Assembly (NCBI GenBank): GCA_019038645.1
Contig: JAHOYT010000011.1
Location: 63,909 to 127,908 of the forward strand
From: Bacteroidales bacterium
Lineage (GTDB): Bacteria > Bacteroidota > Bacteroidia > Bacteroidales > UBA12077
DNA: 64,000 nt
Direction of reading: 5' to 3'
Every line of letters begins with the position of its first letter. Within the stretch, counting starts at the first letter, position 1. The notes beneath the pieces are model-generated. The model made no database searches. It saw only the letters and a list, made by a program, of their open reading frames with translations, and had not been told where the DNA came from. The position numbers and the translations under genes are program-made. Shown piece after piece: positions 10,205 through 59,079 of this stretch.

Positions 10205-10252
10205 CGAACCGATTTTGGAAAGTTATTTCTAAAATCGGCGTTCTTTTATAGT

Positions 10253-10326: not shown

Positions 10327-10344
10327 CGTTGTATTTAAATTATT

Positions 10345-41057: not shown

Positions 41058-41071
41058 TTGATAATTATCAA
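41058..41071. promoter_or_regulatory. Perfect FNR/CRP-type box TTGAT-N4-ATCAA upstream of the ImcH-like gene
   Basis: TTGATAATTATCAA, centred about 90 nt upstream of the ATG at 41155. Confidence 0.55.
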
Positions 41072-41154: not shown

Positions 41155-42657
41155 ATGAAATTACCTCGATCATATTATAATTTGCTATCCTTTATTGGTA
41201 CTACAATAGCAGGAATAAGCCTGTTCATGATTCTTTATCTTTTTGCTGTTTCTTTCTTTTTTGAAAGAACCAGCTCCTATTTAGGGTTATTCATTTATAT
41301 TATTGTACCTGTTTTTATGGTATTTGGCCTTATCTTAATCCCCCTGGGGATGTCAATCGAGATAAGAAAAAGAAAAAAGAAAGGCAAAGAATATCTTCAA
41401 AAAGCGTGGCCTGTAATTGACCTGAATATTTCCAGGTATCGTAATGCTATTATCATATTCTCAATTGGCTCATTATTCTTTCTTTTTTTAACTGGAGTTG
41501 GTAGTTATGAGGCATTTCACTATACAGAATCAGTCGAATTTTGCGGTAAATTGTGCCATGAAGTTATGGAACCTGAGTATGTAGCTTACCAAAATTCATC
41601 ACATTCACGGGTAGCTTGTGTTGATTGTCATGTTGGTTCCGGTGCAGATTGGTATATGAGATCAAAACTATCTGGTTTAAGACAGGTGTATGCCGTGTTA
41701 ACCGATAATTTTTCCCGCCCTATTGAAACTCCGGTAAAAGATTTAAGGCCGGCCAGAGAAACATGTGAAGAATGCCACTGGCCTCTGAAGTTCTATGAAA
41801 GGCGATTAAGACATTCTAAGCATTATTTAACCGACAGTCTGAATACAGAATTGAACATTAGTATGCAAATGAAAATTGGTCCAACTCATAGTGCTCTTGG
41901 TCTGACTGAAGGTATTCACTGGCACATAAATCCTGATGTGAAAATCGAGTATATATCAAGAAATGATGACAGGGAAAATATACCATGGGTAAAATATACA
42001 AATCTTGCCGATAAAACAGTAACAATTTATGAAGATATCAGGGAGCCTTTGAAGCAAGTGAATATCGAATCGTCTGTTACCAGAGAAATGGATTGTATTG
42101 ACTGTCACAACAGACCATCACATCATTATTTAACACCACAGGAATTTGTTGACAATGCTATTGCTTCGGGAGTTATTCCTCAGGATTTACCTTTTATTAA
42201 GAAAATTGCAATGGATTTATTTATTGAACCTTTTGAGAGAAGTGATACTGCTCTTGTTGTAATAGAAAATCATATAAATGAATTTTATAAGAGTTACAAT
42301 TCATTGAATAAAGAGCTTCTTACTAACAAAATAGACAATGCAATAAATGGATTGCAAGAAGGTTTTAGTACGAATATTTTTCCCGAAATGGGAGTTAGCT
42401 GGGATGAATATCCAGATCATATAGGACACAAGACATATAACGGTTGCTTTAGATGTCATAGTGACAATCATGTTAGTAAAGAGGGTCAAACAATAAGTAA
42501 AGATTGTAATCTTTGTCATACCATTGTAATGCAGGGAAGAGTAGGAGAAGAATCAATAGCTTTTGTTAATGATTCTTTGGAATTTATACATCCTGTAGAT
42601 ATAGAAGGTGTTTGGAAAGAAGAACTATGTATGGAGTGCCACAGGTACTTATATTAA
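41155..42657 (+). CDS. Inner-membrane multihaem cytochrome c with NapC/NirT-like region (ImcH-like), 7 haem motifs
   Basis: Three N-terminal TM helices. Motifs: CGKLCH (CxxxCH), CVDCH, CEECH, CIDCH, CFRCH, CNLCH, CMECH. The NapC/NirT-like context FCGKLCHEVMEPEYVAYQNSSHSRVACVDCHVG is present. Confidence 0.75.
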   Translation: MKLPRSYYNLLSFIGTTIAGISLFMILYLFAVSFFFERTSSYLGLFIYIIVPVFMVFGLILIPLGMSIEIRKRKKKGKEYLQKAWPVIDLNISRYRNAIIIFSIGSLFFLFLTGVGSYEAFHYTESVEFCGKLCHEVMEPEYVAYQNSSHSRVACVDCHVGSGADWYMRSKLSGLRQVYAVLTDNFSRPIETPVKDLRPARETCEECHWPLKFYERRLRHSKHYLTDSLNTELNISMQMKIGPTHSALGLTEGIHWHINPDVKIEYISRNDDRENIPWVKYTNLADKTVTIYEDIREPLKQVNIESSVTREMDCIDCHNRPSHHYLTPQEFVDNAIASGVIPQDLPFIKKIAMDLFIEPFERSDTALVVIENHINEFYKSYNSLNKELLTNKIDNAINGLQEGFSTNIFPEMGVSWDEYPDHIGHKTYNGCFRCHSDNHVSKEGQTISKDCNLCHTIVMQGRVGEESIAFVNDSLEFIHPVDIEGVWKEELCMECHRYLY

Positions 42658-42683
42658 TTCATACCAGCTTATTAGTACACAAG

Positions 42684-42720
42684 AAAAACTCCTCAGTTCT
42701 GAATATACTGAGGAGTTTTT
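42684..42720. terminator. Bidirectional terminator between the ImcH-like gene and the tetrahaem gene
   Basis: AAAAACTCCTCAG ... CTGAGGAGTTTTT (13-bp stem flanked by A and T runs). Confidence 0.8.
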
Positions 42721-42739
42721 ATATAATTTGTAATGAGAT

Positions 42740-43261
42740 TTATTGTGTTAAAGGGTTTGGATGAGCGATTTTTGCTACAGCCTCTTCATAATTGAATTCT
42801 TTATAAGTAGGACTCTCTTCATTATGACATGTTACACAAACAGCTTCTACAGGTAAAATCAGGCCATTATCTAAACTCTTTTGCTGATCTTTCATAACAG
42901 ACATAGACTTATATTTACTTCCTGGTCCATGGCATGATTCACATGAAACACCTTCTTTGGCAGTAATTGTTAACATTAGATCTTCGCTGGCTGCATGATA
43001 AGTTGAGTGACACTTTAAACATTTTGGATCATTTTGTGGATCATCTGAGAATTTTTTTGATTCTTCGCTTGCCAATGTTTCATATGCTTTTGCATGAAGT
43101 TTACTTTTCCATGTGTCGTATTGTTTACCTTTTGCCTCTTTATTATGGCACATTTTACATTTCGCAGCACCAATATATTCATAATCTTGTGCCTTTGACA
43201 GACTAACTACAAGAAAAACAGAACAGGCAATTAATAATAATTTTTTTAAATTCATAATCAT
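42740..43261 (-). CDS. Periplasmic tetrahaem cytochrome c (c554-like family)
   Basis: Signal peptide plus CKMCH, CLKCH, CESCH (in GVSCESCHGPGS) and CVTCH. Confidence 0.8.
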   Translation of the reverse strand: MIMNLKKLLLIACSVFLVVSLSKAQDYEYIGAAKCKMCHNKEAKGKQYDTWKSKLHAKAYETLASEESKKFSDDPQNDPKCLKCHSTYHAASEDLMLTITAKEGVSCESCHGPGSKYKSMSVMKDQQKSLDNGLILPVEAVCVTCHNEESPTYKEFNYEEAVAKIAHPNPLTQ

Positions 43262-43473
43262 TTCCTTTCATTTATAAATTAATAATTCGCTATTTTTTTG
43301 TTTTATTAAGTCATTCTTTAATCCAAAAATAGCACTTTTAAATTATTACACAAATTAAAATGCCATTTACTTATCTTATTATTGTCTTTTAAATAAATAT
43401 GAATACATGCATCTATGTATATAATTGCTAGTTAAATATAAAATAAAAAATTGGATGACAGTTATTTAATAAT

Positions 43474-43506
43474 AAAAATTCTCATGTAAATTACATGAGA
43501 ATTTTT
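43474..43506 (-). terminator. Terminator after the cytochrome b gene, separating it from the tetrahaem gene
   Basis: AAAAATTCTCATGTAA-A-TTACATGAGAATTTTT palindrome. Confidence 0.7.
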
Positions 43507-43536
43507 AATTATAATTAAAAATTAATTGCAAGTTTT

Positions 43537-44157
43537 TTATTCCGCTTCATGGTATCCTGTTATGATACTTTTAAAGTTTTTTAGAGGATGCTTACCGATA
43601 GTAATTACGTATAAATGAATTATTAAAAAAATCAGGATAAAAAATCCTGCAATCGAATGGAAGAAAGTAGTTAATCTAATTCCACTCATATCATAGAATT
43701 TTTCAATAATCATTTCAGGAAATAATAATGCAACACCTGTAATTATAACCACAGGAACTAACAGATACATTGTCCCAAAGTAAGATACCTTTTGTAGTGG
43801 GTTAAACTTTTCTTCCTCAGAAATATGAAATGGTTTTGGTTCTCCTTTCAAATATCCAAAAACATAATATTTTCCTTGTTTATATAATCTGTCAATTAAA
43901 CCTTTTAATTTAAGTTTATAATGCTTATTATTTCCGGTAAGAATACCTGCAATGAAAAAGAAAGAATAACTTATTATAATAACAACACCAATAAAATTAT
44001 GCAAAGAAACAGCAGAATTAAATCTTATTAATGGAGATTCTAAATTTGTAAATTGCATACTAATACCTGTAATACCTAAAAGTATTATGCTAATGGCATT
44101 AATTACATGCCATATTCTTAACCAAACAGGATAAAGATATAATCTATTATTGCTCAT
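43537..44157 (-). CDS. Dihaem b-type cytochrome membrane subunit (FdnI/HydC/PhsC-like)
   Basis: 206 aa, 4 TM helices with conserved His residues (RIWHVINA, SLHNFIG, FFHSIAG, IIHLYV). Starts 2 nt after the upstream 7-haem gene. Confidence 0.75.
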   Translation of the reverse strand: MSNNRLYLYPVWLRIWHVINAISIILLGITGISMQFTNLESPLIRFNSAVSLHNFIGVVIIISYSFFFIAGILTGNNKHYKLKLKGLIDRLYKQGKYYVFGYLKGEPKPFHISEEEKFNPLQKVSYFGTMYLLVPVVIITGVALLFPEMIIEKFYDMSGIRLTTFFHSIAGFFILIFLIIHLYVITIGKHPLKNFKSIITGYHEAE

Positions 44158-44158
44158 T

Positions 44159-45085
44159 TTATTTACGTTTAATAATTCTTAAAAATGTATGTAAAAATAT
44201 TCCAGATAATGTAAGGCCAAAAATAATTAAACTAATTAAATTGACATAACTATTTCTATTTGCCCCAATCATATACGCATCATTAAGAATAAATGAATTA
44301 TAAAAGTTAAATTCTGCACGATCTTCTTTTGATTGATGTTTATATAGCTTGTCACGTAAGGATGAATTTGATGAATGACATTCAACGCAATTACGTACAG
44401 CCTGTTCTTTTGGAACAATATGGTGAACCGCATCAGCAGTGTCTGTAACTGCAGTATGACATTCTATGCAACGGACTCTTGAAAAATGTAAAGCCTGATT
44501 TGGTAGCCAATCGTGGGTAGCAATCAATTGAGGATTTTCGTGGGTAGTATATATCTGATATTTATCAACATCATTATGACAGTTTAAACACCTGTTGTTA
44601 TTATATTGAACCAGTTCAGCCATATCAGACTTCACTAATTTATTTGAATGAGGATCATGGCACAACTCACAATTAAAAACATCACCAAAAGCTTCCATAT
44701 GAACGCTTTTTTTCACTTCCGAAGCAATTACCTCAAAAGCATGGCAATCCACACACGTCAGTTTTGGTTCAATTTTTAATTCACAATTATGAGGATAGGT
44801 GTTATACTCCTCGGAATGACAATCTGAACACGCAAGTGCGCTATGTTCTCCATGAAGATAACTAATTGAATCTATAACTAAATAAGGATTCATTAATTTA
44901 CGTTCAGTCAGTTCTGTATTTTCATTATAAAATGAATAATATTTGTGCCCATGGCATTTAAGACAAGTACTATTTGATTCAGGCATTTCAAGTATTTCCT
45001 CATTTTCCTGAGCTTGAACAATAAAATGAAAAGAAAAGAGAAATAAACTGATAATAATCAACTTCGTTGGTAAAACAATTTTCAT
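44159..45085 (-). CDS. Heptahaem cytochrome c with C-terminal membrane anchor
   Basis: Signal peptide. CLKCH, CSDCH, CVDCH, CELCH, CLNCH, CIECH, CVECH. C-terminal TM helix (LISLIIFGLTLSGIFLHTFL). Confidence 0.8.
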   Translation of the reverse strand: MKIVLPTKLIIISLFLFSFHFIVQAQENEEILEMPESNSTCLKCHGHKYYSFYNENTELTERKLMNPYLVIDSISYLHGEHSALACSDCHSEEYNTYPHNCELKIEPKLTCVDCHAFEVIASEVKKSVHMEAFGDVFNCELCHDPHSNKLVKSDMAELVQYNNNRCLNCHNDVDKYQIYTTHENPQLIATHDWLPNQALHFSRVRCIECHTAVTDTADAVHHIVPKEQAVRNCVECHSSNSSLRDKLYKHQSKEDRAEFNFYNSFILNDAYMIGANRNSYVNLISLIIFGLTLSGIFLHTFLRIIKRK

Positions 45086-45317
45086 TTTTAGAATAGATTA
45101 TTTAGGGTTTAAAAAATAAATAATTATTATGTTTTGAATATTTGAAAAAGGATTTTTCAAAATTTATAATTTTACTGATACGCAATTAAATCATTTATTA
45201 TTAATTGACAAAAGATTTGCCTATAAATATTTTAACAAAAAATAACAAACTATAATTTTTATTAGATTTTTCATTGATATTTAGCAGTCATCATGTCAGT
45301 CTAATTAGTGTATAACA

Positions 45318-45332
45318 TTGATATATATACAA
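45318..45332. promoter_or_regulatory. Degenerate FNR-like box in the divergent promoter region of the 7-haem/cyt b operon and the 19-haem gene
   Basis: TTGATATATATACAA. It equals the 51579 box with one extra A. About 80 nt upstream of the ATG at 45408. Confidence 0.3.
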
Positions 45333-45407
45333 ATAATTAGATAGATAAAATTTGATGATTTAACCAAATTAAGATATATTTACTTATATATTCTAATTTT
45401 TAGACAT

Positions 45408-48194
45408 ATGATTTTCAATCAATTTATTCCAAAAAGAAGCATTTGTTTATTTTCAGTTTTATTTTTTTTACAAATATCATTTACATATAGCCAGTCTGAT
45501 GAAGACTGTTTGACGTGCCATGAAGATACTGAACTAACGTCAGAAAAAAATGGAACTACAAAATCAATGTATGTCGATGGGACTATTTTAAAATATTCAG
45601 TTCATAAATCTGTTTCCTGTGCTTCATGTCATAAAGATGCTGATGTAAATGATTTTCCACATGATGAAAATTTAAGTAAAGTTAATTGTGGTGAATGCCA
45701 TGTAAATGCAGATGATAACTTTTATAAAGGGATTCATGGTCTGGCATTGAAATTAGATGAACCACATGCACCTACTTGTAAAGAATGTCATGGTGAGCAT
45801 TTAATATTACATCAGTCAAATCCAAAGTCTTTAACTTATAAAATGAATATCCCGGTTTTATGCGGTAAATGTCATAAAGAAGGAGCTCCTGTTGCGCGTG
45901 CTTATAAAATTACACAACATAATATACTGGATAATTATAGTCAGAGTATTCATGGATTAGGATTATTTAACAGAGGGCTAATTGTTACTGCAACCTGTAA
46001 CAACTGCCATGGTAACCATTTAATTTTATCACATACCAGTCCAAATTCTACTATTTCTGTTAATAATATTGCTGAAACATGTATGCAATGTCATGCCCGA
46101 ATCGAAGATGTTCATACTAAGGTTATAAAAGGTGAATTGTGGGAAGAATCTCCCGGAGCAATTCCAGCTTGTACTAACTGTCATCCTCCTCATAAGATTA
46201 ATACTCAGAACATTATGGCAACCATGTCAGACAAGTCTTGTTTACGTTGTCATAGCGATGATGACATTCACAAGATTGTTGATGGGGAAAAAATATCATT
46301 AAAAGTTGACAGAGCAGATCTGGATAGTTATGAACATAAAAATATAACATGTGTAAAATGTCATACTGATGTTTCACCATATTTAGAAAGACCATGTGAA
46401 ACCGCCATGGATGTAGATTGTGATAATTGCCATGCGGAAGTATCAAGCATATATTTTGCCAGCGGACATGGACAGGCATATTTCAGAAAAGATGAAAATG
46501 CCCCATATTGCACTGATTGTCATGGAAGCCACAAAGTAAGGTCCAGATATGATGAAGAAGCACAGACATACAGAACAAATATACCAAGCCTATGTGGTGA
46601 GTGCCATCAAAAAGATAATAAGGCAATTGAAGGTAAGGGATTAAAAGAACTTGATGCTTATTTGGATTATTCATCAAGCGTGCATGGTAAAAGTCTGGAA
46701 GAAAAAGGATTAACAATAAGTGCTGTTTGTATCGACTGCCATTCAACCCATAATATGCTAAAAGAATCTGATGAAAACTCGTCAGTTCATCCAAAAAATC
46801 TTCCTTCAACATGTGCAAAATGCCACAAACCAATATCTGACGAATATTTAGCAAGCGAACATTCAATTGAACATAATGATCCTGATAAAAAATTCCCGAC
46901 TTGCGCTAACTGTCATTCCGCACATGTTATTTCAAATATAGATCAGGATGAGTTTATGACAGAGATAACTCATCAATGTGGTTCTTGTCATGAAGATTTA
47001 TCGGAAACGTATTTAGATACGTATCATGGTAAGGCTTATCAGTTAGGTTATTTAGAAACTGCAAGATGTTCTGATTGCCATGGAGCTCATAAAATTTTAG
47101 ATGTGAATAATCCTGATTCCGAAGTTGGGATTCATAATATTGTTGCAACCTGTCAAAAATGCCATCCTGATGCAAACGAGAGATTTACAGGCTATTTAAC
47201 ACACGCAACTCATAACGATAAAAGTAAATATCCGGCACTATATTATGCTTTTTGGGCAATGACATTTTTACTTGTTGGTGTTTTTGGATTTTACGGAATT
47301 CATACTCTTTTATGGATTCCAAGGTCTATAATAGAGAGAAGAAAGGAAAAACATGTAAAACCAGAAGGGAAAATAAAATATATCAGGCGATTTGAATATA
47401 GTCAAAGAATCACACACCTTTTTGTAATTATGAGCTTTATTCTCCTTGCAATTACCGGGATGATAATAAAATTTGCACATATGGATTGGGCAAAATTTTT
47501 AGTAAAAGCAATTGGTGGTGCTTATAATGCAAGTATAATTCACAGGTTTGGTGCTGTAATAACGTTTGGTTACTTCGCTTATCATCTTTATTCCCTGATC
47601 AAATTAAAGATTAAACGAAAAAAATCATTTAGGAAATTCATTTTTGGCAGTAATTCATTAATGTTTAATATGCAGGATTGGAGAGATTTGTGGGCAACAT
47701 TAAAATGGTTTGTAGGGAAAAGTCCACGTCCAAATTACGGAAGATGGACATATTGGGAAAAATTTGACTATATGGCTGTTTTTTGGGGAGTAGCTGTTAT
47801 TGGATTTTCCGGATTAATGTTATGGTTTCCTGAGTTTTTCTCAAAGGCGTTACCAGGATGGGTTATTAATGTAGTTCAGATTATTCATAGTGATGAAGCT
47901 TTACTGGCAACAGGTTTTATCTTTACGGTTCACTTTTTTCATACTCATTTCCGCCCTGAAGCTTTTCCAATGGATACTGTTATTTTTACAGGACTTGTTC
48001 CGTTAGAAAATTTTAAAAAGGAAAGACCAAAAGAATATAATGAACTTGTGGAATCTGGTCGTTTGGAAGAACTTGTAGTTGAAAAAGAAATTACAAAATG
48101 GAAATTAAAACTTGTTAAAGCATTTGGATTCTTTTTCGTAGGAATTGGAATTACGTTGGTTATTCTTATAATATATTCTTTACTATCCGGGTAA
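45408..48194 (+). CDS. 19-haem cytochrome c fused to a C-terminal dihaem cytochrome b membrane domain (CbcL-like architecture)
   Basis: 19 CxxCH motifs counted in residues 34-585. Then about 5 TM helices with FdnI/PhsC-like His pattern (RITHLFVI, IIHRFGA, IIHSDEA, TVHFFHTH). Confidence 0.8.
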   Translation: MIFNQFIPKRSICLFSVLFFLQISFTYSQSDEDCLTCHEDTELTSEKNGTTKSMYVDGTILKYSVHKSVSCASCHKDADVNDFPHDENLSKVNCGECHVNADDNFYKGIHGLALKLDEPHAPTCKECHGEHLILHQSNPKSLTYKMNIPVLCGKCHKEGAPVARAYKITQHNILDNYSQSIHGLGLFNRGLIVTATCNNCHGNHLILSHTSPNSTISVNNIAETCMQCHARIEDVHTKVIKGELWEESPGAIPACTNCHPPHKINTQNIMATMSDKSCLRCHSDDDIHKIVDGEKISLKVDRADLDSYEHKNITCVKCHTDVSPYLERPCETAMDVDCDNCHAEVSSIYFASGHGQAYFRKDENAPYCTDCHGSHKVRSRYDEEAQTYRTNIPSLCGECHQKDNKAIEGKGLKELDAYLDYSSSVHGKSLEEKGLTISAVCIDCHSTHNMLKESDENSSVHPKNLPSTCAKCHKPISDEYLASEHSIEHNDPDKKFPTCANCHSAHVISNIDQDEFMTEITHQCGSCHEDLSETYLDTYHGKAYQLGYLETARCSDCHGAHKILDVNNPDSEVGIHNIVATCQKCHPDANERFTGYLTHATHNDKSKYPALYYAFWAMTFLLVGVFGFYGIHTLLWIPRSIIERRKEKHVKPEGKIKYIRRFEYSQRITHLFVIMSFILLAITGMIIKFAHMDWAKFLVKAIGGAYNASIIHRFGAVITFGYFAYHLYSLIKLKIKRKKSFRKFIFGSNSLMFNMQDWRDLWATLKWFVGKSPRPNYGRWTYWEKFDYMAVFWGVAVIGFSGLMLWFPEFFSKALPGWVINVVQIIHSDEALLATGFIFTVHFFHTHFRPEAFPMDTVIFTGLVPLENFKKERPKEYNELVESGRLEELVVEKEITKWKLKLVKAFGFFFVGIGITLVILIIYSLLSG

Positions 48195-48286: not shown

Positions 48287-49153
48287 TTATTGGAATCTCA
48301 CAATAATATTAAACCCTAGTAATATTCCTTCGCTATCAAATTTGTTTGTATTCATTACATAATTCTTTTGTGCCATAATTCCCTGGTAATTTGTGGCAAA
48401 AACTTGAAAAGCATGTGTTGGAGTACTGATTTCTAATCCAAAAGCAATTCCTGGCTGAATTTCATAAGAATAATCCCGAACAGAATTGATATTTATTGGT
48501 TGATGATATTCGAACATAGCTGACATTGTACCCGTAAATTTATATCGGCCACCAACCATTACTCCGGATTTATTATTCTGATAAACACTGTCGACAGCGT
48601 TAAAATGCGAATAACTTGGGGCTAATTGTACCGATAATGCGTCGGTAAATTTTCGGGAAACAATAATTTGAGTAAAGTATGAGAAGCGATCAGTGAATTC
48701 ATAATTACCACCAAAAAATTGATCCTCTCTGGTATCAACTGTTACATTAGCATGAACTGATAATGAAACAGGCATGCTGCCGGATCTTGTTTGTTGCAGA
48801 ATTGCGTATTTACCATTAAGATCCTGGAACTTATTAGCTTTTTCTGTTCCAATTCCAATGGTTAATTTGTCGGTAATTCCGTATTGTAAACCCATTCTTA
48901 TATTTGATGCAGCATAGATTCCAAACAAATCAGTAAATCCATTATCCATTCCACCAAAACGGTGATGTATAATTAGTTCCAGTGATTTCGCAGTAGAACC
49001 TATAATTGTTTGACTTTCAATTAAGGTTGATGCTTCCCAGGGCATATAAACAGGTTTTTCTACTTTTTTTTCAGTTTCTTCCTGCGCAAATGCAATAGTG
49101 CTGGTTGCAGCAATTAATAATGTAATGAAAAATTTGAAAGTGTATTTCTTCAT
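48287..49153 (-). CDS. Small outer-membrane beta-barrel protein (resembles DUF5777-type)
   Basis: Signal peptide (..STIAFAQEE), alternating amphipathic strands, C-terminal FNIIVRFQ. 35 nt downstream of the monohaem lipoprotein gene. Confidence 0.65.
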   Translation of the reverse strand: MKKYTFKFFITLLIAATSTIAFAQEETEKKVEKPVYMPWEASTLIESQTIIGSTAKSLELIIHHRFGGMDNGFTDLFGIYAASNIRMGLQYGITDKLTIGIGTEKANKFQDLNGKYAILQQTRSGSMPVSLSVHANVTVDTREDQFFGGNYEFTDRFSYFTQIIVSRKFTDALSVQLAPSYSHFNAVDSVYQNNKSGVMVGGRYKFTGTMSAMFEYHQPININSVRDYSYEIQPGIAFGLEISTPTHAFQVFATNYQGIMAQKNYVMNTNKFDSEGILLGFNIIVRFQ

Positions 49154-49188: not shown

Positions 49189-49542
49189 TTAGTTGTCTAA
49201 AGCTCCTTCTTGTATCCATTTAAGAAGATAAGCGCTTTCTTCTGGTGTAAATGGATTACTACCATGTCCTTCATTTACTTTAATATAAATTTCACTTGAT
49301 GCAGGCTCATCAGTGTTAATGTAACCTCCATCCATTAAATTGGTATATTCATTTCCGTCAGTTAAAACCGGCTTAACGTTTGCATGACAGCTGGCACATT
49401 TTTGTTCAAAAATAGGTTTTATATGTTCTGTAAAGCTAAGTCCATCAGGTACCTCAAAAACCAAAGGTTCAATTACATTATATTCACATGATGAAGTACA
49501 GATTAAAATTAATCCTAAAATAAATAATAAACTTTTTTTCAT
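49189..49542 (-). CDS. Monohaem c-type cytochrome lipoprotein (PSCyt1-like domain), paralogue 1
   Basis: Lipobox ICTSSC, single CASCH, C-terminal LLKWIQEGA. Confidence 0.7.
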   Translation of the reverse strand: MKKSLLFILGLILICTSSCEYNVIEPLVFEVPDGLSFTEHIKPIFEQKCASCHANVKPVLTDGNEYTNLMDGGYINTDEPASSEIYIKVNEGHGSNPFTPEESAYLLKWIQEGALDN

Positions 49543-49855: not shown

Positions 49856-50242
49856 TTAGTTGTTTTCAGCCCCTTCTTCTATCCATTTAAGAAGATAAGC
49901 TAATTCTAAAGGAGTATATGGATTACTACCCGGATGACCTAAATAGACTTTAACAAATAATTCACTTGATTCAGGATCGTTAGTATTAATGTAACCACCA
50001 TTAATTAAATTATCATATGCGCTACCGGTGATTAAAACAGGATTGGTTATAGAATGACAGGATATACATTTATCCTGAAAAACAGGTTCAATTTGTGCAG
50101 AAAAACTAATAGGGTCTGCAGGATCGTCAGGGTCATCAGGTAGCTCAGGTAACTCCCTTACAATTGGTTCAACTATCTTGTATTCACACGAAGTAATAAA
50201 GATAAAAACTAATCCTAAAATAATTAATAGACTCTTTTTCAT
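49856..50242 (-). CDS. Monohaem c-type cytochrome lipoprotein, paralogue 2 (Pro/Asp-rich linker)
   Basis: Lipobox FITSC, PELPDDPDDPADP linker, single CISCH, C-terminal LLKWIEEGA. Clearly paralogous to 49189-49542. Confidence 0.7.
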   Translation of the reverse strand: MKKSLLIILGLVFIFITSCEYKIVEPIVRELPELPDDPDDPADPISFSAQIEPVFQDKCISCHSITNPVLITGSAYDNLINGGYINTNDPESSELFVKVYLGHPGSNPYTPLELAYLLKWIEEGAENN

Positions 50243-50311: not shown

Positions 50312-51433
50312 TTATAATGTTGCAGCTAATGTAATAGTGTTATCTAATAAAGTGATAATGTAATCCGGGTTGTGAATTCCAAGACTCTGATCTTCTGCAA
50401 TAATTAAATAGTTAAATACACATCTTCCTAGATCTGCAGCAACAGGATTGTCGCTATATCCACCATATCCTGCGCCCATTGCATGATATCCTACAGTGTC
50501 TATGGTCTCTACATGTTCTCCTAAAGTTTCGTTCCATACTGTTTCAGTTTCGGTGTCAGGATCCAAACCTCCTAATAATGCTAATGTTCTTCCTAAGCTA
50601 GTTAATTTGCCTTCAACCTCATCCTGAATTGCTTCAAGTTTATCTTCAATGTCACTATGGCAAGTAGTACAAGCAGACTCATCCAAAGCTAATGTGTGGT
50701 TACCTTCGTTCATGTGGCAAGTAATACAATCATGACTGAATGATGCTGATGGATCGAATGCTCCTGTTGGGTATCCGGTACCTACTTCAACTCCTCCTTG
50801 AGAATTTAATATATTTCCTTGTGGTCCATGGTGTGGTCCCCAATAATGAGATAAAGGTACATCAGCTGTAGAAGTAGCACTTGGTGCGCCTGTAGGATTA
50901 CGTGATTGGTGACACTGTACACACATGTTAACATCGTCCATATCTTCAAATTCACCTGAAGCAACATCTGTATTATCAATACCTAAAATTGTTTCAGTTA
51001 CCTGATCTGTAAAAGTTAATCCCCAGTCTGTTGCATCATTGGCTGTATGAATAGGGTGGCAAGCTTTACAACTAATTGCAGATTGATCAGTTAGGGCTAA
51101 ATCAAAAATTTCATCAGCAGAAGTAAAATCCATACGAGCTAAAAATCCTTCAGTACTGTGACATCCTGAACAGTCTCCACTTCGGGAAAAATATGTTCCT
51201 AATGAATGAGCAGATTCGTTGAATTGATCAACTTTAACATCATATTCGGTACCTTCATTATGGCAAGCCATACAAACAGCAGTACCATCACCACCGGTAG
51301 CCCCATCGACGCCGTCGACTCCGGCAATACCGTCAGTACCATCAATACCATCAATACCTGCAGGTCCTTCACAAGACATGAAGATTGCTCCAAAAAGGAA
51401 CAAAATACTTAATAATTTAATTAAATTTTTCAT
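50312..51433 (-). CDS. Hexahaem cytochrome c lipoprotein with N-terminal collagen-like Gly-X-Y repeat
   Basis: Lipobox FMSC. GPAGIDGIDGTDGIAGVDGVDGATGGDGT (9 G-X-Y triplets). CMACH, CSGCH, CKACH, CVQCH, CITCH, CTTCH. Confidence 0.8.
   Translation of the reverse strand: MKNLIKLLSILFLFGAIFMSCEGPAGIDGIDGTDGIAGVDGVDGATGGDGTAVCMACHNEGTEYDVKVDQFNESAHSLGTYFSRSGDCSGCHSTEGFLARMDFTSADEIFDLALTDQSAISCKACHPIHTANDATDWGLTFTDQVTETILGIDNTDVASGEFEDMDDVNMCVQCHQSRNPTGAPSATSTADVPLSHYWGPHHGPQGNILNSQGGVEVGTGYPTGAFDPSASFSHDCITCHMNEGNHTLALDESACTTCHSDIEDKLEAIQDEVEGKLTSLGRTLALLGGLDPDTETETVWNETLGEHVETIDTVGYHAMGAGYGGYSDNPVAADLGRCVFNYLIIAEDQSLGIHNPDYIITLLDNTITLAATL
51281..51367 (-). repeat. Coding triplet repeat for the collagen-like G-X-Y tract of the hexahaem lipoprotein
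   Basis: Residues 23-51 of the CDS. This DNA repetitiveness also generates the spurious ORFs 51199-51393(-) and 51206-51412(+). Confidence 0.8.
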
Positions 51434-51533: not shown

Positions 51534-51578
51534 GTTGATTATAATCGATCTTTAGAACATTTAACATCAATTTACGTA

Positions 51579-51592
51579 TTGATATATATCAA
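51579..51592. promoter_or_regulatory. Perfect FNR/CRP-type box TTGAT-N4-ATCAA
   Basis: TTGATATATATCAA, centred about 62 nt upstream of the Crp/Fnr ATG (51648) and about 152 nt from the hexahaem gene start (51433). Confidence 0.55.
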
Positions 51593-51647: not shown

Positions 51648-52343
51648 ATGATGGATTTAAATGCTAAGATATCGTGCAAAAATTGTAAACACGGCTGGGG
51701 AAATTTTAAAAATTTAACCGCTAAAGAACTTGAAATAGTAAATGAAAACAGATTTCAGGCTAATTTTCAGGCCGGGGAAATAATTTTTAAACAAGGCTCT
51801 CCTGTATCAAATGCAGTTTTTTTAATAAATGGAATGGCAAAAATATATATAGAGGGTTTTGATAAGAAAAGAATGATGGTGGGTATTGCTAAACCAAAGG
51901 CTTTAATTGCCGGACCGGGTACTTTTGTTGATGATAGACATCATTATTCTGTTGCTGCATTAACTGATGTTACAGCATGTTTTATTAAAATGGATGTTCT
52001 TAAGGATTTTGTGAATACTAATGGTAAATTTGCCGAAGGATGGTTGCGGGATATAAGTCAAAAAGCATTAGGAACGTTTTATAAATTTTTAAGTCACACG
52101 CAAAAAAAAATGCATGGTCGTTTGGCCGAGACATTATTGTATTTAGCTGATGAGGTTCACAATTCAGATGATTTTACGATGCTTTTATCAAGGCAAGAAT
52201 TAGGCGAATTGTCCGGAATGGCTAAAGAAAGTGTTGTTCGGATATTGAAAGATTTAGCACAAGATAATATTATAGAAGATAAATGTCCCCATATTAAAAT
52301 CCTGAATAGGAAAAAGCTTCAAATGATTTCAAATATGGGTTAA
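51648..52343 (+). CDS. Crp/Fnr-family transcriptional regulator
   Basis: cNMP-binding-like beta-roll (FQAGEIIFKQGSPVSNAVFLINGMAKIY) and C-terminal HTH (SRQELGELSGMAKESVVRILKDL). N-terminal CKNC. ATG at 51648. Confidence 0.85.
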   Translation: MMDLNAKISCKNCKHGWGNFKNLTAKELEIVNENRFQANFQAGEIIFKQGSPVSNAVFLINGMAKIYIEGFDKKRMMVGIAKPKALIAGPGTFVDDRHHYSVAALTDVTACFIKMDVLKDFVNTNGKFAEGWLRDISQKALGTFYKFLSHTQKKMHGRLAETLLYLADEVHNSDDFTMLLSRQELGELSGMAKESVVRILKDLAQDNIIEDKCPHIKILNRKKLQMISNMG

Positions 52344-52349
52344 TATGTA

Positions 52350-55300
52350 ATGTATAAAATAAAAATTAAGTTTATGAAAAAGAAAAGTATCTTTCTGTTT
52401 ACTCCTTGGTTTATGGGAGTTTTGTTTATAGTGTTTGCGATGTCAATGGCTTTTGCAACATTTTATGAAAACGATTTTGGTGCAGTTGCGGCCAAAACAT
52501 TAGTTTATAACACTAAATGGTTTGAATTGTTAATGCTTTTAATGGTAATTAATCTTACCGGACAGGTATTTCAGTTTAAGTTATACAAAAGAAAGAAACT
52601 TACTATTTTACTATTTCACGCCGCCTTTGTTTTAATGATAATTGGTGCCGGAATTACACGTTATTTTGGGTTTGAAGGCGTTGTTCATATTCGTGAAAAT
52701 GATTCTCAAAATATTTGTACTTCAACAGATCAGTATTTGCAATTTAATGTTAGTAATTTAGACGGAAATGTTCTTTTTTCCGATTCAAAGAAATTATCTA
52801 TAACATCTGTAAAACAAGAAAAATATCATCAAGATGTAAAAATAGATGATGTAGATTATTCATTAAAATTTACTAACTATTTGACTAATGCAGTAGAGTC
52901 GATAGTTAATGTTGAAAATGGAGAACCTATGGTTTCTGTTTTAATATCAAGAGGAATGATGGGACGACAAACTATATTTTTGAAAAAAGGTGAAATTAAA
53001 AATGTGGGTGGAATTATGTTTGGTTTTGGCGAAGATGATTCTGTTGATGTGAGAATTACTATTCAGGATGATGCATTCAAAATACAATCGGAATATCCCA
53101 TTAGCGAAATAAGCATGATGTCGCAAAAAGCAACTATTCATGAACAAGGTGAAGCCATTCCGTTTGAAACTATGAAAATTTACCAGGTTAAAGGTTTATC
53201 TATTGTAGCTGAAGTGTTAAGCAAAAGTGGGGTTGTTAAAGTGGTAAATGCAGATTCCAAAACAAATACAACAAATAAAAGTGCTTTGGTTTTTGAATTG
53301 GTTCACGGAAATAAATTAACTGAATTAATTCTATTGAGAGCGCCGGGAATAAATAATACTACTAGATTTATTAATGGGGAGCATTCTATTGAGGTAAGCT
53401 ATAGTTCATTAGAAGTAGAATTACCGTTTAGCTTAAAGTTGGAAGATTTTATACTGGAAAGATATCCTGGTTCAAGTAGCCCTTCATCCTATAAGAGTGA
53501 TGTTGTATTAATAGATGAAAAGGAGGGTGTAAATATGCCTTATTCTATTTATATGAATCATATATTAAAATATAAGGGTTGGAGATTTTATCAATCGTCA
53601 TACGATCAGGATGAAAGAGGAACAATTTTATCTGTGAACAGAGATTTTGCAGGAATGTTTGTTACATATGTCGGATATTTTATATTATTCTTATTTATGG
53701 TACTATCATTGATTAATAAAAATTCAGCTTTTCGAACAGTTACTAAAAACTTTTTTAGATCAACTTCAGGTAAAGTAGTCAGTTTATTATTTTTATTTCT
53801 AAGTTCTTCATTACTGGCAAGTTCTCAAAATCAGAAATTAGTAGTACCCAAATCTCTTTCCAATGAGTTTGGAAAAGTATTAGTTCAGAATCAGAAAGGA
53901 AGAACTGAACCTATTTACGCTTTAAGCAACGATATTTTAAGAAAAGTAACCAAAGAAACAGAATTCGACGGGTATTCACCAATGCAGGTGTTTTTAGGAT
54001 TCTATTTTGATTTTCATAACTGGCAAAAGGTTCCGTTAATTAAAATTTCTAATGTTGATGTAAAAAAAGCAATTGGTATTAATGGAGATTATGCTGCATT
54101 TTCAGATATTGTTGATTTGCAGGAAAATAGTTATAAATTAAAACAATATGTGGATGCTGCTTATGCAAAGCCATCAGGAGCCAGAAATAAGTTTGATAAG
54201 GAAATTATTAAAGTAGATGAGCGCTTGAATATTTGCTTCATGATTTACTCAGGTGAGTTCATGAAAATATTACCGGTTAAAGATCATTCAATGAAATGGC
54301 ATTCACCAAAAGATGCTTATACATTTGTTGCAAACGCTGATGATTCACTGTACTTAAGAAATATTGTTGGTTTATTTGCTCAGGGAGTTGATATAGCGAA
54401 TACCTCTGGTGATTATACTCAGGCTAATGAAACTTTAAAATCAATAATTAATTATCAGAGAAATTTTGCGCAATATGAATTGCCGGATACAAGAAAGGTA
54501 AATGCGGAAATACTCTATTATAAATCCAAAATTTATGATAAACTTTTCCCTTTTTATGCTTCTATTGGATTGCTTCTTTTATTTATTCTGCTTTATGGAA
54601 TAATATCTCAGAACAAAAATCTTGGACTAATAATTAAAATTTTTACAGGACTTCTTATTGTAGGTTTTGTTTTTCATACAATGGGATTGACTATTCGATG
54701 GTATGTTTCGGGCCATGCACCAATGAGTAATGGTTATGAATCAATGATTTTTATTTCCTGGGTAACTATATTGGCCGGATTCTTTTTTGGTAAGCGATCT
54801 TCATTTGTTTTGGCTGCAACATCTGTTTTAGGTGGTTTTACACTTATGGTAGCACATTTAAGTTTTATGGATCCACAAATAACAAATCTGGTTCCGGTGT
54901 TGCAATCTTATTGGTTAACAATTCACGTTTCTGTTATTACAGGTAGCTACGGATTCTTAGGTTTAGGTGCTATAATAGGAATTATTGTACTAATTCTTTA
55001 TTCAATGATCTCGGAAAGTAATAAAGCAAATATATTATCAACAATAGAAGAGCTAACAATTATTAATTACAAAGCATTGACTATTGGCTTATATCTTCTT
55101 ACTATCGGAACTTTTCTGGGAGCTATTTGGGCTAATGAATCATGGGGCAGATATTGGGGTTGGGATCCAAAAGAAACATGGTCGTTGATTACAATTATTG
55201 TTTATAGTTTTGTTATTCACTCCAGAATGATAAAGGAATTAAAAGGATTTTATGCTTTTAATGTAATTTCATTATTTGCATTCTCTTCTGTGTTAATGAC

Positions 55301-55463
55301 CTATTTCGGTGTGAATTATTATTTGTCAGGATTACACTCATATGCGGGTGGAGATCCTGTGCCTGTACCTAAGTTTGTTTATGTAAGTATTTTCCTATTA
55401 GTTTCACTATCGATATTGGCTTACCAGAGATACAGGAAAATTTTATTAACAAATACAAAATAG
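52350..55463 (+). CDS. ccsBA: Fused system II cytochrome c synthase CcsBA (ResB + CcsA)
   Basis: N-terminal ResB-like TM and periplasmic domain. C-terminal CcsA with WWD motif WGRYWGWDPKETWS and conserved His. 1037 aa. Alternative start at 52374. Confidence 0.88.
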   Translation: MYKIKIKFMKKKSIFLFTPWFMGVLFIVFAMSMAFATFYENDFGAVAAKTLVYNTKWFELLMLLMVINLTGQVFQFKLYKRKKLTILLFHAAFVLMIIGAGITRYFGFEGVVHIRENDSQNICTSTDQYLQFNVSNLDGNVLFSDSKKLSITSVKQEKYHQDVKIDDVDYSLKFTNYLTNAVESIVNVENGEPMVSVLISRGMMGRQTIFLKKGEIKNVGGIMFGFGEDDSVDVRITIQDDAFKIQSEYPISEISMMSQKATIHEQGEAIPFETMKIYQVKGLSIVAEVLSKSGVVKVVNADSKTNTTNKSALVFELVHGNKLTELILLRAPGINNTTRFINGEHSIEVSYSSLEVELPFSLKLEDFILERYPGSSSPSSYKSDVVLIDEKEGVNMPYSIYMNHILKYKGWRFYQSSYDQDERGTILSVNRDFAGMFVTYVGYFILFLFMVLSLINKNSAFRTVTKNFFRSTSGKVVSLLFLFLSSSLLASSQNQKLVVPKSLSNEFGKVLVQNQKGRTEPIYALSNDILRKVTKETEFDGYSPMQVFLGFYFDFHNWQKVPLIKISNVDVKKAIGINGDYAAFSDIVDLQENSYKLKQYVDAAYAKPSGARNKFDKEIIKVDERLNICFMIYSGEFMKILPVKDHSMKWHSPKDAYTFVANADDSLYLRNIVGLFAQGVDIANTSGDYTQANETLKSIINYQRNFAQYELPDTRKVNAEILYYKSKIYDKLFPFYASIGLLLLFILLYGIISQNKNLGLIIKIFTGLLIVGFVFHTMGLTIRWYVSGHAPMSNGYESMIFISWVTILAGFFFGKRSSFVLAATSVLGGFTLMVAHLSFMDPQITNLVPVLQSYWLTIHVSVITGSYGFLGLGAIIGIIVLILYSMISESNKANILSTIEELTIINYKALTIGLYLLTIGTFLGAIWANESWGRYWGWDPKETWSLITIIVYSFVIHSRMIKELKGFYAFNVISLFAFSSVLMTYFGVNYYLSGLHSYAGGDPVPVPKFVYVSIFLLVSLSILAYQRYRKILLTNTK

Positions 55464-56711: not shown

Positions 56712-58067
56712 ATGAAAAACAAATTCGCCAAACCAGGTTTTTTGATTTTAATAGCAGTTTTAATTGGAATAAACTACAGTTGTTCTAATAAAACAATTGA
56801 GGTATTTGAAGAAAAAATGACTGTTGCATCCTGTGAAGGATGTCATATTAACTATGCACATTTACAGGAAATATATACACCTGATACTGCTGCTCCGGCA
56901 GGAGGTTGCGGTGGAGAAGCTCCTCATTATGAGCCTTATGATAGAGTTTACATGGGAGGTGCGGGTTACGCTGATTTTAAAAAAACAGTACATTATAACA
57001 TGGGCTGTATTGCCTGTCATAACGGAACTGATAACACATCAGATAAAGATGTAGCTCATTCCGGCGATTTTATTTCTCATCCTTCGCTGTATTATGAAGA
57101 AAAATGCGGTGATTGTCATGACGAAATCACTAATAACTATGTGACAAGTATTCATAACGGAACAGGCCAAAAAAGAGCAGTTACGATGCGAAGCGGTTTA
57201 AGTGGTGCTGAAGAATTTGATCTGTTACCTGAACATCAAATTGAAGGTTATAATGCTAATTGTGCTACTTGCCATGGTACTTGCGGAAATTGTCACGTTT
57301 CCCGACCTGCAATTGCTGGTGGTGGTCTTTCAAATGGCCATGCTTTTACTAAAACTCCTGATATGGTAGACATTTGTATTAGTTGCCATACATCAAGAGG
57401 CGGGCATGCCTATTTAGGTGTAGCAATAGGAACTGTGCCTGATGCACACTTAACAAATAATGGATATGATTGTATGGATTGTCATACCGGTGCAGAATTA
57501 CATGGCGATGGAAATCCGGTAGATCAAAGATATGCATATAGTGAATTACCTACATGTGATAAATGCCATACTGATATTGCAACTGAAAACGATTACCATT
57601 CTATGCATTATGATGATTTCAATTGCCAGGTTTGTCACTCGCAGGATTATAATAATTGTGGTAGTTGCCATGTACATGGTGATGGAGCACGTGTTCCATC
57701 GTATTTAGGATTTAAAATTGGGGTTAACCCGATTCCTGATATTAAAACTGATTTCAACTTTGTATTATTGAGAAGAACTTTGGCTGCACCTGATAATTGG
57801 AAAGAATATGGAGTTGAAAGTTATGCCAACTTTGATGTTTTACCAACATATAATTATACCTCACCGCATAATATTTTAAGATGGACAACCAGAACCCAGG
57901 TTGATGGATCTGATTGTACAACAAGCTGCCATATCAGAGATGAGGATGGAGTATTAATCAATAAGGAATTATACTTATTTCAGGAGGATTTAGTAGAAGA
58001 CTGGGAATTAAGCGCAACAACTGGAATTACGGTTGATGGGAAATTACCTGGAACATGGACAAAATAA
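56712..58067 (+). CDS. Decahaem (10 CxxCH + 1 CxxxCH) cytochrome c lipoprotein
   Basis: Lipobox NYSC. CEGCH, CIACH, CGDCH, CATCH, CGNCH, CISCH, CMDCH, CDKCH, CQVCH, CGSCH, plus CTTSCH. Confidence 0.8.
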   Translation: MKNKFAKPGFLILIAVLIGINYSCSNKTIEVFEEKMTVASCEGCHINYAHLQEIYTPDTAAPAGGCGGEAPHYEPYDRVYMGGAGYADFKKTVHYNMGCIACHNGTDNTSDKDVAHSGDFISHPSLYYEEKCGDCHDEITNNYVTSIHNGTGQKRAVTMRSGLSGAEEFDLLPEHQIEGYNANCATCHGTCGNCHVSRPAIAGGGLSNGHAFTKTPDMVDICISCHTSRGGHAYLGVAIGTVPDAHLTNNGYDCMDCHTGAELHGDGNPVDQRYAYSELPTCDKCHTDIATENDYHSMHYDDFNCQVCHSQDYNNCGSCHVHGDGARVPSYLGFKIGVNPIPDIKTDFNFVLLRRTLAAPDNWKEYGVESYANFDVLPTYNYTSPHNILRWTTRTQVDGSDCTTSCHIRDEDGVLINKELYLFQEDLVEDWELSATTGITVDGKLPGTWTK

Positions 58068-58113: not shown

Positions 58114-59079
58114 ATGAAAAACACAAAAATTTTATTATTAAGTATTTTATCAGCTTTTTTATTCTTTGCATCTTGTGATGACGATGATCCGGTAGTAAAT
58201 GAATCTGAAGTTCTTGTTGAATATCTTGAAACAACAGGAGGAACAGTAGTTAATACTTTCCCTGTTATGATTAAAACATCAGATGTAAATACGGGAAATT
58301 TAACTGAAGCGGATCAATATGTTATTGATATCAGATCTGCCACAGATTATGCAACAGGACACATTGAAGGAGCTGTTAATGTTGCAGCTGGAGAAGTCCT
58401 TGCACATTATGAAGCAAATAACCTGGAAAGTTATACAACTGTTGCTATTGCTTGCTATAGTGGCCAATCTGCAGGATGGGTAAACGGACTGTTATACACA
58501 ATGGGTTACACGAATACAAAAGACATGAAATGGGGAATGTGTGGTTGGAATGAAACAACTTCCGGATCATGGACATCTAATATTGGTAATAATTATGCTT
58601 CTGCTTTAGTTACTGATGTTACTGCAAAAGCTGAAGAAGGAAGTCTTCCAAAATTAAGCACAGGGGTAACTGATGCTGAAGATATTTTAAGAGCAAGAGT
58701 TGAGGCTGTTTTTGCTGAAGGCTTTAGTGAAGCTGCAGTTTCGGCTTCTACTGTTTTTACTACACCAGACGATTATTATATTGTTAATTACTGGAGCGAA
58801 GATCATTACAGCTGGGGTCATATCCCGGGAGCAATTCAATATAGTCCGGGAGCTACTTTAACTTCAGATACTTTCCTTAAGACTCTTCCAACTGACAAGC
58901 CTATTGCAGTTTATTGCTATACTGGTCAGACATCAGCTCACGTTGCTGCTTATTTACGAGTTTTAGGATATGACGCAAAATCAGTTAAATTTGGTGTTAA
59001 TGGAATGTCTTATGATGCTATGCCAGGAACTAAGTTTATAGAAGAGACTGATGTTCATGATTATGAATTAGTTCAATAA
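58114..59079 (+). CDS. Tandem-rhodanese-domain lipoprotein
   Basis: Lipobox FFASC. Two rhodanese active-site loops, CYSGQSA and CYTGQTS, each preceded by a GHI(E/P)GA motif. Confidence 0.8.
   Translation: MKNTKILLLSILSAFLFFASCDDDDPVVNESEVLVEYLETTGGTVVNTFPVMIKTSDVNTGNLTEADQYVIDIRSATDYATGHIEGAVNVAAGEVLAHYEANNLESYTTVAIACYSGQSAGWVNGLLYTMGYTNTKDMKWGMCGWNETTSGSWTSNIGNNYASALVTDVTAKAEEGSLPKLSTGVTDAEDILRARVEAVFAEGFSEAAVSASTVFTTPDDYYIVNYWSEDHYSWGHIPGAIQYSPGATLTSDTFLKTLPTDKPIAVYCYTGQTSAHVAAYLRVLGYDAKSVKFGVNGMSYDAMPGTKFIEETDVHDYELVQ

Follow-up and report, generated by a model that had tools for sequence, protein, structure and literature searches.

A conserved collagen-like Gly-X-Y tract between the predicted lipid anchor and the haem domain of a hexahaem cytochrome family: a candidate triple-helical stalk

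The window analysed here is a 64,000-nucleotide stretch of DNA from a Bacteroidales bacterium (GTDB lineage Bacteria; Bacteroidota; Bacteroidia; Bacteroidales; UBA12077; GenBank assembly GCA_019038645.1, contig JAHOYT010000011.1, positions 63,909 to 127,908 of the forward strand). One of its open reading frames encodes a hexahaem lipoprotein of 373 residues (minus strand, 50312–51433, stop codon at 50312–50314), in which a short collagen-like tract of Gly-X-Y triplets lies between the predicted lipid anchor and the haem domain. Very probably this tract is a selected, structured spacer of the collagen type. On balance, and with far less assurance, we consider that it builds a homotrimeric triple-helical stalk of about 8.6 nm, which would carry three hexahaem heads with haem 1 two residues past the end of the helix. 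In this proposal we infer the lipidation, the triple helix, the trimer, the surface location and the physiological acceptor alike.

The protein starts with a signal peptide and lipobox (residues 1–21, ending in AIFMS-C21; minus strand, 51371–51433) that have the customary traits: a positively charged n-region, a hydrophobic h-region and a small residue at position -1. Cys21 is invariant in an alignment of 52 homologues and is predicted to be the lipidated first residue of the mature protein. From its start the protein reads MKNLIKLLSILFLFGAIFMSC-E-GPA GID GID GTD GIA GVD GVD GAT GGD GTA-V-CMACH, that is, ten Gly-X-Y triplets at residues 23–52 (minus strand, 51278–51367). The sequence-only reading of this DNA had placed nine triplets immediately after the lipobox Cys, at 51281–51367. 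The tract itself is real and the boundary at 51367 stands, but the triplets number ten, the earlier span having ended within the tenth, and a single residue, Glu22, separates Cys21 from the first Gly. The same reading had called the protein hexahaem, and six CxxCH motifs are indeed present, starting at residues 54, 88, 122, 171, 236 and 255 (minus strand, 51260–51274, 51158–51172, 51056–51070, 50909–50923, 50714–50728 and 50657–50671). The hexahaem domain covers residues 53–373, with a C-terminal helical bundle included (minus strand, 50315–51277), as modelled by AlphaFold2 (AF2). Haem 1, attached at Cys54, is thus only two residues past the last triplet.

Chance can be excluded as the source of the tract because ten in-register Gly residues in 373 would be expected about 2e-8 times (at the family background of 9.4% Gly), because the tract recurs in 211 of 220 lipobox-bearing homologues, and because no other genuine Gly-X-Y run of at least five triplets occurs in the six frames of the 64-kb window, whose G+C content is 32.7%. 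No other Gly-X-Y tract was found in the neighbouring cytochromes, the rest of the window or some 1 Mb of related loci, where the only further runs are antisense frames of the same gene; thus, the tract is specific to the hexahaem family. A search with the whole protein identified 613 homologues, of which we examined 120, down to 31% identity. A run of at least three triplets between the lipobox Cys and the first CxxCH was present in 119 of the 120 homologues listed. To remove the bias that the tract itself introduces, we also used the haem domain alone (residues 51–373) as a query against 1.84 billion representative proteins. It matched 768 representative clusters (50% identity), and the tract was again found in most full-length members of the best 150 of these 768 matches. 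Both homologue sets were pooled for statistics on composition, which gave the 220 lipobox-bearing proteins mentioned above. The 211 with a tract (96%) have 3 to 16 triplets, with a median of 8, and between the first and the last in-register Gly of these 211 proteins, Gly occupies 1,750 of 1,764 register positions (99.2%). The sequence-only reading would have given way if orthologues lacked the tract or broke its register. Instead, the tract is kept down to approximately 30% identity and across five phyla.

The residues between the glycines are highly variable, yet they are position-specific. Gly is nearly excluded from X and Y (8 of 3,106 positions, or 0.3%, versus 9.4% in the remainder of the same proteins), Pro makes up 29% of X and 4.6% of Y, and Asp makes up 2.4% of X and 38% of Y. 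On these counts, the Gly periodicity is under selection. The enrichment of imino acids at X and the exclusion of Gly from X and Y constitute a collagen-type preference across the family. The tract in the window is atypical in Pro, with one in ten triplets; it has six Asp residues, all of them at Y, and no basic residue. The family has two anticorrelated tract flavours, one rich in Pro and one rich in Asp (r = -0.53). The Pro-rich flavour (classical collagen, GPAGPQGEPG) predominates in Terrabacteria and close to the lipid anchor, and the Asp-rich flavour (G-[TIVA]-D) predominates in Bacteroidota and close to the haem domain. Acidic residues are scarcest in the first two triplets, which are mostly G-P-A or G-P-E. 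When the tract alone was compared with PDB sequences, only collagen chains matched, weakly, and precomputed matches to the Pfam Collagen model (PF01391) exist for homologues with longer tracts (e.g., P0029, P0056, P0067, and P0424).

Both ends of the tract are fixed. It starts at a C-E-G or C-[TV]-K-E-G junction, ends one or four residues before the haem Cys, and takes up a median of 89% of the residues from the lipid Cys to the first haem Cys. Its length is not fixed. As the sequence-only reading had expected, the repeat number varies among close relatives, and it does so in whole triplets: relatives at 83–88% identity have 6, 7, or 8 triplets versus 10 in the window, and the difference from the 83%-identical loci L005 and L006 is a clean in-frame indel of 18 bp within the tract. 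Tandem Repeats Finder detected a 9-bp tandem repeat of 3.8 copies inside the tract (minus strand, 51325–51358), which is likely the substrate for in-register gain and loss of triplets.

The haem domain places the protein among known cytochromes. The six CxxCH motifs are invariant in the 52-sequence alignment, and so are five further His residues, namely His76, His129, His201, His246, and His354; six candidate distal His residues are conserved, and the alignment also has the signature W-G-P-H-H-G-P-Q-G. In profile searches of the PDB, the best match was OcwA of Thermincola potens (6i5b, E 2.5e-16), followed by OmhA of Carboxydothermus ferrireducens (6qvm) and then by NrfA, octahaem nitrite reductases, HAO, and MtrC. 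The AF2 model of the protein (predicted local distance difference test score, pLDDT, 85.5) has helices at residues 262–286, 333–348, and 356–371 that form the C-terminal bundle, and its best fold match in Foldseek was again OcwA 6i5b (probability 1.00, query TM-score, TMq, 0.46). OcwA and OmhA are terminal reductases at the cell surface (PMC6703420). With the window protein they share the NrfA-type haem packing and the C-terminal helical bundle, and OmhA is wall-anchored, as are some relatives of the window protein. The differences are substantial: the window protein has six haems, all of them in CxxCH motifs, versus 9 or 11 in OcwA and OmhA, identity is about 15%, and OcwA has neither a lipid anchor nor a Gly-X-Y tract. 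No CxxCK motif is found in the window protein; because of this, we rejected its identity as a nitrite reductase and filed it as an electron-transfer module. Judged by profile and fold, the protein is an electron-transfer relative within the NrfA/OcwA superfamily. Neither Pfam nor NCBIfam has a dedicated hexahaem model; only generic multihaem models and a sub-threshold Collagen match are obtained.

What other lineages have in place of the tract is informative about its role. Three of the representatives from the haem-domain search have exactly one SLH motif instead of the lipobox and tract, and a search seeded with one of these three recovered a Terrabacteria clade with haem domains 48–78% identical to the seed and with four kinds of N terminus. 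Approximately 27 of its members, from Thermoleophilia, have a single SLH motif; 71, from Chloroflexota and Acidimicrobiia, have a lipobox followed by a classical Pro-rich tract such as GPAGPAGPQGEPGPA; approximately 7 have a lipobox and a Thr/Pro/Ala-rich low-complexity linker; and a few have a signal peptide only. Further relatives are fused to LRR or TSP3 repeats. The SLH-type relatives comprise P0183, P0202, P0221, and P0391–P0418 (loci L087/L088, positions 8001–10385), and in L087 the genes next to P0202 encode another single-SLH protein (145 residues) and a small cytochrome, which may represent a wall-anchored multi-protein cytochrome assembly in a monoderm. The haem domains of P0399–P0408 are about 62–77% identical to those of the SLH forms and follow a lipobox and 30–50 Thr/Pro/Ala-rich residues. 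Such linkers show no Gly periodicity and are a natural control for an unconstrained tether at the position of the tract. Tract-less Bacteroidota homologues begin with C-S-K-D-E-N-E-D-E, C-S-K-D-D-N-E, or C-G-N-D-D-D-D-D-D. In Bacteroidota, the experimentally defined signal for lipoprotein export to the surface is K-(D/E)2, Q-A-(D/E)2, or S-D-D-D-D, placed no more than about five residues past the lipidated Cys (PMC5080379), and the three starts fit its K-(D/E)2 or S-D-D-D-D form. The C-S-K-D-E and C-S-K-D-D starts match K-(D/E)2 fully, and the acidic starts of these tract-less homologues point to a location at the cell surface. Seen across the family, the N-terminal module is an interchangeable anchor and spacer, and its shared role is anchoring plus spacing, because other lineages replace the tract by an SLH motif or by a Thr/Pro-rich or acidic linker.

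The sequence-only reading had offered two roles for the tract, trimerisation of the cytochrome and projection of its haems away from the membrane. Projection is the better supported of the two, because in sister lineages other modules take the place of the tract, namely a single SLH motif or linkers that are Thr/Pro-rich or acidic. Trimerisation into 18 haems is plausible but unproven. The mechanism that we propose combines both. After cleavage by signal peptidase II, the protein would be held in a membrane by acylated Cys21, and residues 23–52 would form an extended rod of about 8.6 nm (30 residues at the collagen rise of 0.286 nm per residue), most likely of three chains wound into a triple helix, which would keep the hexahaem domain off the membrane surface. 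Because Cys54 follows the last triplet by two residues, the three haem-1 groups of such a helix would come close to one another near its axis, and the three six-haem chains could be coupled as an 18-haem unit. We take the hexahaem protein to be the outward end of a route that transfers electrons outside the cytoplasm under anaerobic conditions, with the cell surface as its probable location. The strict Gly period, the absence of Gly from X and Y, and Pro at X are what the packing of three collagen chains demands and what a single-chain linker does not need, and this argues for a triple helix. So do the fixed junctions at the anchor and at the haem domain and the matching of the tract to collagen chains only. 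A functional SLH domain consists of three motifs, and single-SLH OmpM makes one from three chains (PMC10628300). By this analogy, the single-SLH relatives hint at threefold assembly.

Several observations weigh against a triple-helical, surface-exposed trimer. The window protein scores 16.7 bits with PF01391, below the gathering threshold of 27.2 bits, and the tract has a pLDDT of about 50–60 in the AF2 run, although a run with a single chain is uninformative for this segment. The tract is short, with 10 triplets in the window and 3–4 in some lineages such as Saccharicrinis, and triple helices this short that lack hydroxyproline are marginal unless an adjacent domain nucleates them. Host-guest data rank Asp among the less favourable residues at Y. 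Across the family, a triplet has on average 0.5 acidic and 0.05 basic residues, and the median net charge of a tract is -4; the window tract, which has a single Pro, carries about -7 on each chain when Glu22 is counted, and a trimer would carry about -21. With basic residues nearly absent, salt bridges between chains cannot stabilise the helix, and an isolated helix of the window tract is expected to have poor stability without cation screening and nucleation by the head domain. OcwA, the closest solved relative, is a monomer or weak dimer both in solution and in the crystal (PMC6703420), which by analogy speaks against a trimer. The haem domain needs no trimerising N terminus, because several Actinomycetota relatives carry instead Thr/Pro/Ala-rich linkers, which are unable to trimerise, and the second single-SLH protein beside P0202 means that the SLH assembly could be heteromeric. 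As for surface exposure, the mature window protein begins C-E-G-P-A-G-I-D, its first two acidic residues being at +2 (Glu) and +8; C-E-G-P does not belong to the canonical export signals, and the common variant C-[TV]-K-E-G-P matches the signal partially.

Could the tract be a tether of single chains? It would then be a monomeric, polyproline-II-like anionic spacer without a triple helix, its periodicity coming from 9-bp slippage and from a preference for an extended, non-sticky chain, and repulsion from an anionic lipid or lipopolysaccharide surface may help it to stand off. We hold this, the main rival, to be possible but rather doubtful. Spacing is the function common to the family, as sister lineages fill this position with disordered linkers of comparable length, either Thr/Pro/Ala-rich or acidic, and a tether would suit a tract that is short, net negative, and without basic residues, that comes down to 3–4 triplets, and that precedes a haem domain whose relative OcwA is not a trimer. 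The 9-bp tandem repeat and the varying triplet number are also what active slippage would leave behind. On the other hand, a monomeric spacer needs no Gly at every third residue and gives no reason why Gly should be kept out of X and Y (0.3% versus 9.4%), why Pro should sit at X, or why Asp should sit at Y. Slippage cannot explain the purity of the register at about 30% identity, where the X and Y residues and the codons differ, and the true disordered linkers of the family show no periodicity. We also rejected an intramolecular bundle of the polyglycine-II or antifreeze type, because the tracts are single uninterrupted runs of 3–16 triplets with no turn segments.

Two further explanations turn on the acidic residues. 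If these served as a sorting or assembly signal, acidic residues near the lipidated Cys would direct surface export and the repeat would merely supply them. Published export signals consist of acidic residues at +3 to +5 (PMC5080379), tract-less homologues carry such motifs (C-S-K-D-E-N-E-D-E and C-G-N-D-D-D-D-D-D), and in the window Glu is at +2 and half of the triplets end in Asp. We consider this explanation highly improbable: about five residues suffice for the signal whereas the tract spans 9–48, the first two triplets are the least acidic, and Gly periodicity is absent from the known signal. Moreover, the tract is kept equally well in Chloroflexota and Actinomycetota, which have no outer membrane and whose tracts are Pro-rich and not acidic. 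The conservation of the tract in monoderm phyla therefore excludes a purely Bacteroidota sorting role, and the Bacteroidota export signal was rejected as the sole explanation. It is scarcely more probable that the tract is a metal-binding acidic rod, in which a G-x-D array would bind Ca2+, Mg2+, Fe, Mn, or a mineral and so stabilise the stalk or dock the cytochrome on a solid substrate. In favour of such a rod, Asp occupies 38% of all Y positions in the family and 6 of the 10 in the window, basic residues are nearly absent, the DNA comes from marine sediment, where divalent cations abound, and the gene context suggests mineral or extracellular electron transfer. Yet tracts of the Pro-rich, Asp-poor flavour are no less common, and the two flavours are anticorrelated, which means that metal binding cannot be the function they share, and no metal-binding family was matched in Pfam and NCBIfam scans. 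The three-residue period is also unlike the Ca-binding repeats known to us (the RTX nonapeptide and TSP3); RTX or TSP3-type repeats were rejected because their period is at least nine residues and because no such family was matched. A trimeric collagen-type stalk continues to be our preferred, if cautious, reading of the tract.

Such a stalk can be compared with several known systems. Like the collagen domains of Streptococcus Scl1 and Scl2 and of Bacillus BclA, the tract consists of uninterrupted Gly-X-Y without hydroxyproline and with Pro at X, a non-collagen globular domain is located directly at one end, and the number of triplets varies between strains. The collagen domains of Scl1, Scl2, and BclA comprise tens of triplets and are charge-balanced; the tract of the hexahaem family has 3–16 triplets, is strongly acidic, is located at a lipidated N terminus, and bears a redox head. 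With C1q, the collectins, and the ColQ-tailed acetylcholinesterase, it shares the logic of heads on a triple-helical stalk that sets distance and valency, and the N terminus of the C1q B chain (C-T-G-P-P-A-I-P-G-I-P-G) even aligns with the start of the window tract (C-E-G-P-A-G-I-D-G-I-D-G). However, those proteins are eukaryotic, hydroxylated, and disulfide-knotted, without a membrane lipid anchor or redox cofactors, and only the Gly periodicity is shared. The single-SLH stalk of OmpM/SlpA and Braun's lipoprotein Lpp are similar in that an N-terminal anchor (SLH or lipid) is followed by a threefold envelope rod of defined length. Their rods consist of alpha-helical coiled coils and link the outer membrane to peptidoglycan, whereas here a collagen helix is proposed to carry an electron-transfer domain.

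In Bacteroidota, the hexahaem gene is the first of a conserved cassette. A homologue of a monohaem lipoprotein gene lies directly downstream of it in most related loci, and the order hexahaem protein, monohaem lipoprotein, DUF5777 barrel is found in 59 of 84 related loci. In the window, the monohaem lipoprotein, as the second cassette gene, is duplicated in tandem (copy 1, 128 residues, minus strand, 49856–50242, identified as an open reading frame and by a family scan; copy 2, 117 residues, minus strand, 49189–49542, an open reading frame), and there is one copy in most related loci. Copy 1 has an extra acidic Pro-rich insert (PELPDDPDDPADP) following the lipobox. The third gene encodes a DUF5777 outer-membrane beta-barrel of 288 residues (minus strand, 48287–49153; PF19089, E 5e-72). 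Its AF2 model (pLDDT 87) has 12 strands, and the nearest folds are NanC, FapF, and OmpG. In a sequence search against the PDB, the barrel had no match and the monohaem protein had nothing significant (best E 0.54), and our search of the full-text literature found no mention of DUF5777. Across 42 homologues, the barrel has invariant His64 and His247 residues and a conserved I-I-H-H-R-F-G motif; the invariant His pair may bind haem or a metal. Separate genes, often overlapping, encode the monohaem lipoprotein and the barrel. The pair may resemble the fused cytochrome-porin of the Cyc2 type, in which a monohaem cytochrome c and an outer-membrane barrel in one protein pass electrons through the membrane, here with the parts encoded apart.

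Divergently from the cassette, the plus strand encodes a Crp/Fnr-family regulator of 231 residues, identified by Pfam, from a probable start at ATG 51648 (51648–52343). The TTG start listed for this open reading frame is the first base of a perfect FNR/CRP-type palindrome, TTGATATATATCAA (51579–51592), found by pattern search; the start is more probably ATG 51648 because the TTG falls on the palindrome and because the adjacent homologues are 231 residues long. A Crp/Fnr gene is usually adjacent in related loci. The palindrome lies between the hexahaem gene and the regulator gene, with a one-mismatch copy 44 bp away (51535–51548). Only two perfect TTGAT-N4-ATCAA palindromes exist in the 64 kb, each upstream of a cytochrome gene, the second (41058–41071) being upstream of a NapC/NirT-like one. 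If the palindrome functions as its pattern implies, the cassette is probably under Fnr/Crp control. The regulator gene is followed by one for a fused ResB/CcsB (CcsBA) protein of system-II cytochrome c maturation (plus strand, 52350–55463; PF05140 and PF01578, TIGR03144), a neighbour also found in L001. Near the cassette are modules of the quinol-dehydrogenase type: NapC/NirT, a multihaem protein with a cytochrome b, or Fer4_11 with NrfD.

Eight c-type cytochrome genes, with 54 CxxCH motifs among them, are clustered within 17 kb of the window (41–58 kb), including those at 41155–48194 and 56712–58067. Among the products is a 928-residue protein with 19 CxxCH motifs fused to a cytochrome b membrane domain (Ni_hydr_CYTB). 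The others include a 7-haem protein with a separate cytochrome b, a 6-haem NapC/NirT-like protein, a c554-like tetrahaem protein, and a decahaem lipoprotein. Next to this island is a gene for a rhodanese-domain lipoprotein (plus strand, 58114–59079). Its mature start, C-D-D-D-D, is near the S-D-D-D-D export signal, which suggests a surface-exposed sulfurtransferase. Just upstream of the island, the plus strand encodes an [FeFe]-hydrogenase large subunit with an N-terminal 2Fe-2S/4Fe-4S ferredoxin-like region (38583–40373); this is consistent with a strictly anaerobic, fermentative host.

Taken as a whole, the genes indicate that the locus is an anaerobically regulated, extracytoplasmic electron-transfer system. 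In outline it resembles the Mtr/Pcc type (Shewanella MtrCAB; Geobacter OmaB-OmbB-OmcB and Ext), with a lipoprotein multihaem cytochrome, a second cytochrome, an outer-membrane barrel, and inner-membrane quinol dehydrogenases nearby. Unlike in MtrCAB, the DUF5777 barrel has 12 strands, the partner cytochrome has one haem, and there is no sequence kinship past generic multihaem motifs. The 26-strand MtrB barrel sheathes a decahaem cytochrome, and some 20 or more strands are wanted to enclose a multihaem cytochrome. We therefore rejected membership in the Mtr/Pcc design, since the barrel is too small and its partner has one haem; if the locus encodes a conduit, the 12-strand barrel and the monohaem partner imply a different design. 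We also know of no collagen stalk in Mtr/Pcc systems. As a tentative and rather speculative extension, 18-haem collagen-stalked trimers (with stalks of about 3–14 nm), the monohaem lipoprotein, and the 12-strand DUF5777 barrel with its invariant His residues might make up a new three-part outer-membrane conduit in Bacteroidota and Chlorobiota, with the trimers as its outward terminal, and the same stalked cytochrome might reach through the wall in monoderm Chloroflexota and Actinomycetota.

The family is widely distributed. When one genome per species was scanned, relatives turned up in at least 587 species-level genomes from five phyla: Bacteroidota, Chlorobiota, Neomarinimicrobiota, Chloroflexota, and Actinomycetota. 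Most carriers are Bacteroidota, from Bacteroidales, Prolixibacteraceae, Marinilabiliales, Salinivirgaceae, Lentimicrobiaceae, Flavobacteriaceae, and Cyclobacteriaceae, and the others belong to Chlorobiota/Ignavibacteria, Neomarinimicrobiota, Chloroflexota, and Acidimicrobiia. Among the carriers available in culture are Gaoshiqia sediminis, G. hydrogeniformans, Mangrovibacterium lignilyticum, Ancylomarina sp. DW003, Maribellus sp. YY47, and Saccharicrinis spp. The closest relatives of the window protein (83% identity) are from Bacteroidales/Bacteroidetes metagenome-assembled genomes, one of them labelled Guaymas. The window locus was recovered from DNA metagenomes only, from marine sediment and a cold seep, and no RNA run holding it was found. 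In RefSeq and GenBank, members of the family are named "hypothetical protein" or, automatically, "collagen-like protein."

The sequence-only reading knew of no cytochrome built in this way, and our search of the full-text literature agrees with it, as no description of a collagen-tailed cytochrome was found. Neither was anything on the hexahaem family found in the literature on Bacteroidetes and extracellular electron transfer, and hexahaem, collagen, or lipoprotein forms are absent from a published account of NrfA/OcwA evolution. What is new is the joining of a bacterial collagen-like module to a cytochrome of the OcwA/NrfA type; both kinds were already known. If the proposal is true, this would be the first collagen-type module on a redox protein and among the shortest natural collagen domains. 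The Pro-rich and Asp-rich flavours amount to a natural experiment on minimal triple-helix stability, and the stalk could serve as a compact, genetically tunable spacer or trimeriser for electroactive surfaces. To our knowledge, nearly all understanding of extracellular electron transfer comes from Shewanella, Geobacter, and a few Firmicutes, and little is understood of how the abundant sediment Bacteroidota, Ignavibacteria/Chlorobiota, Marinimicrobia, Anaerolineae, and Thermoleophilia exchange electrons with minerals or partner cells. With at least 587 genomes at the species level and 768 clusters, the hexahaem family offers a concrete candidate for such electron exchange, and it can be put to the test in cultured carriers of the genera Gaoshiqia, Mangrovibacterium, Ancylomarina, Maribellus, and Saccharicrinis.

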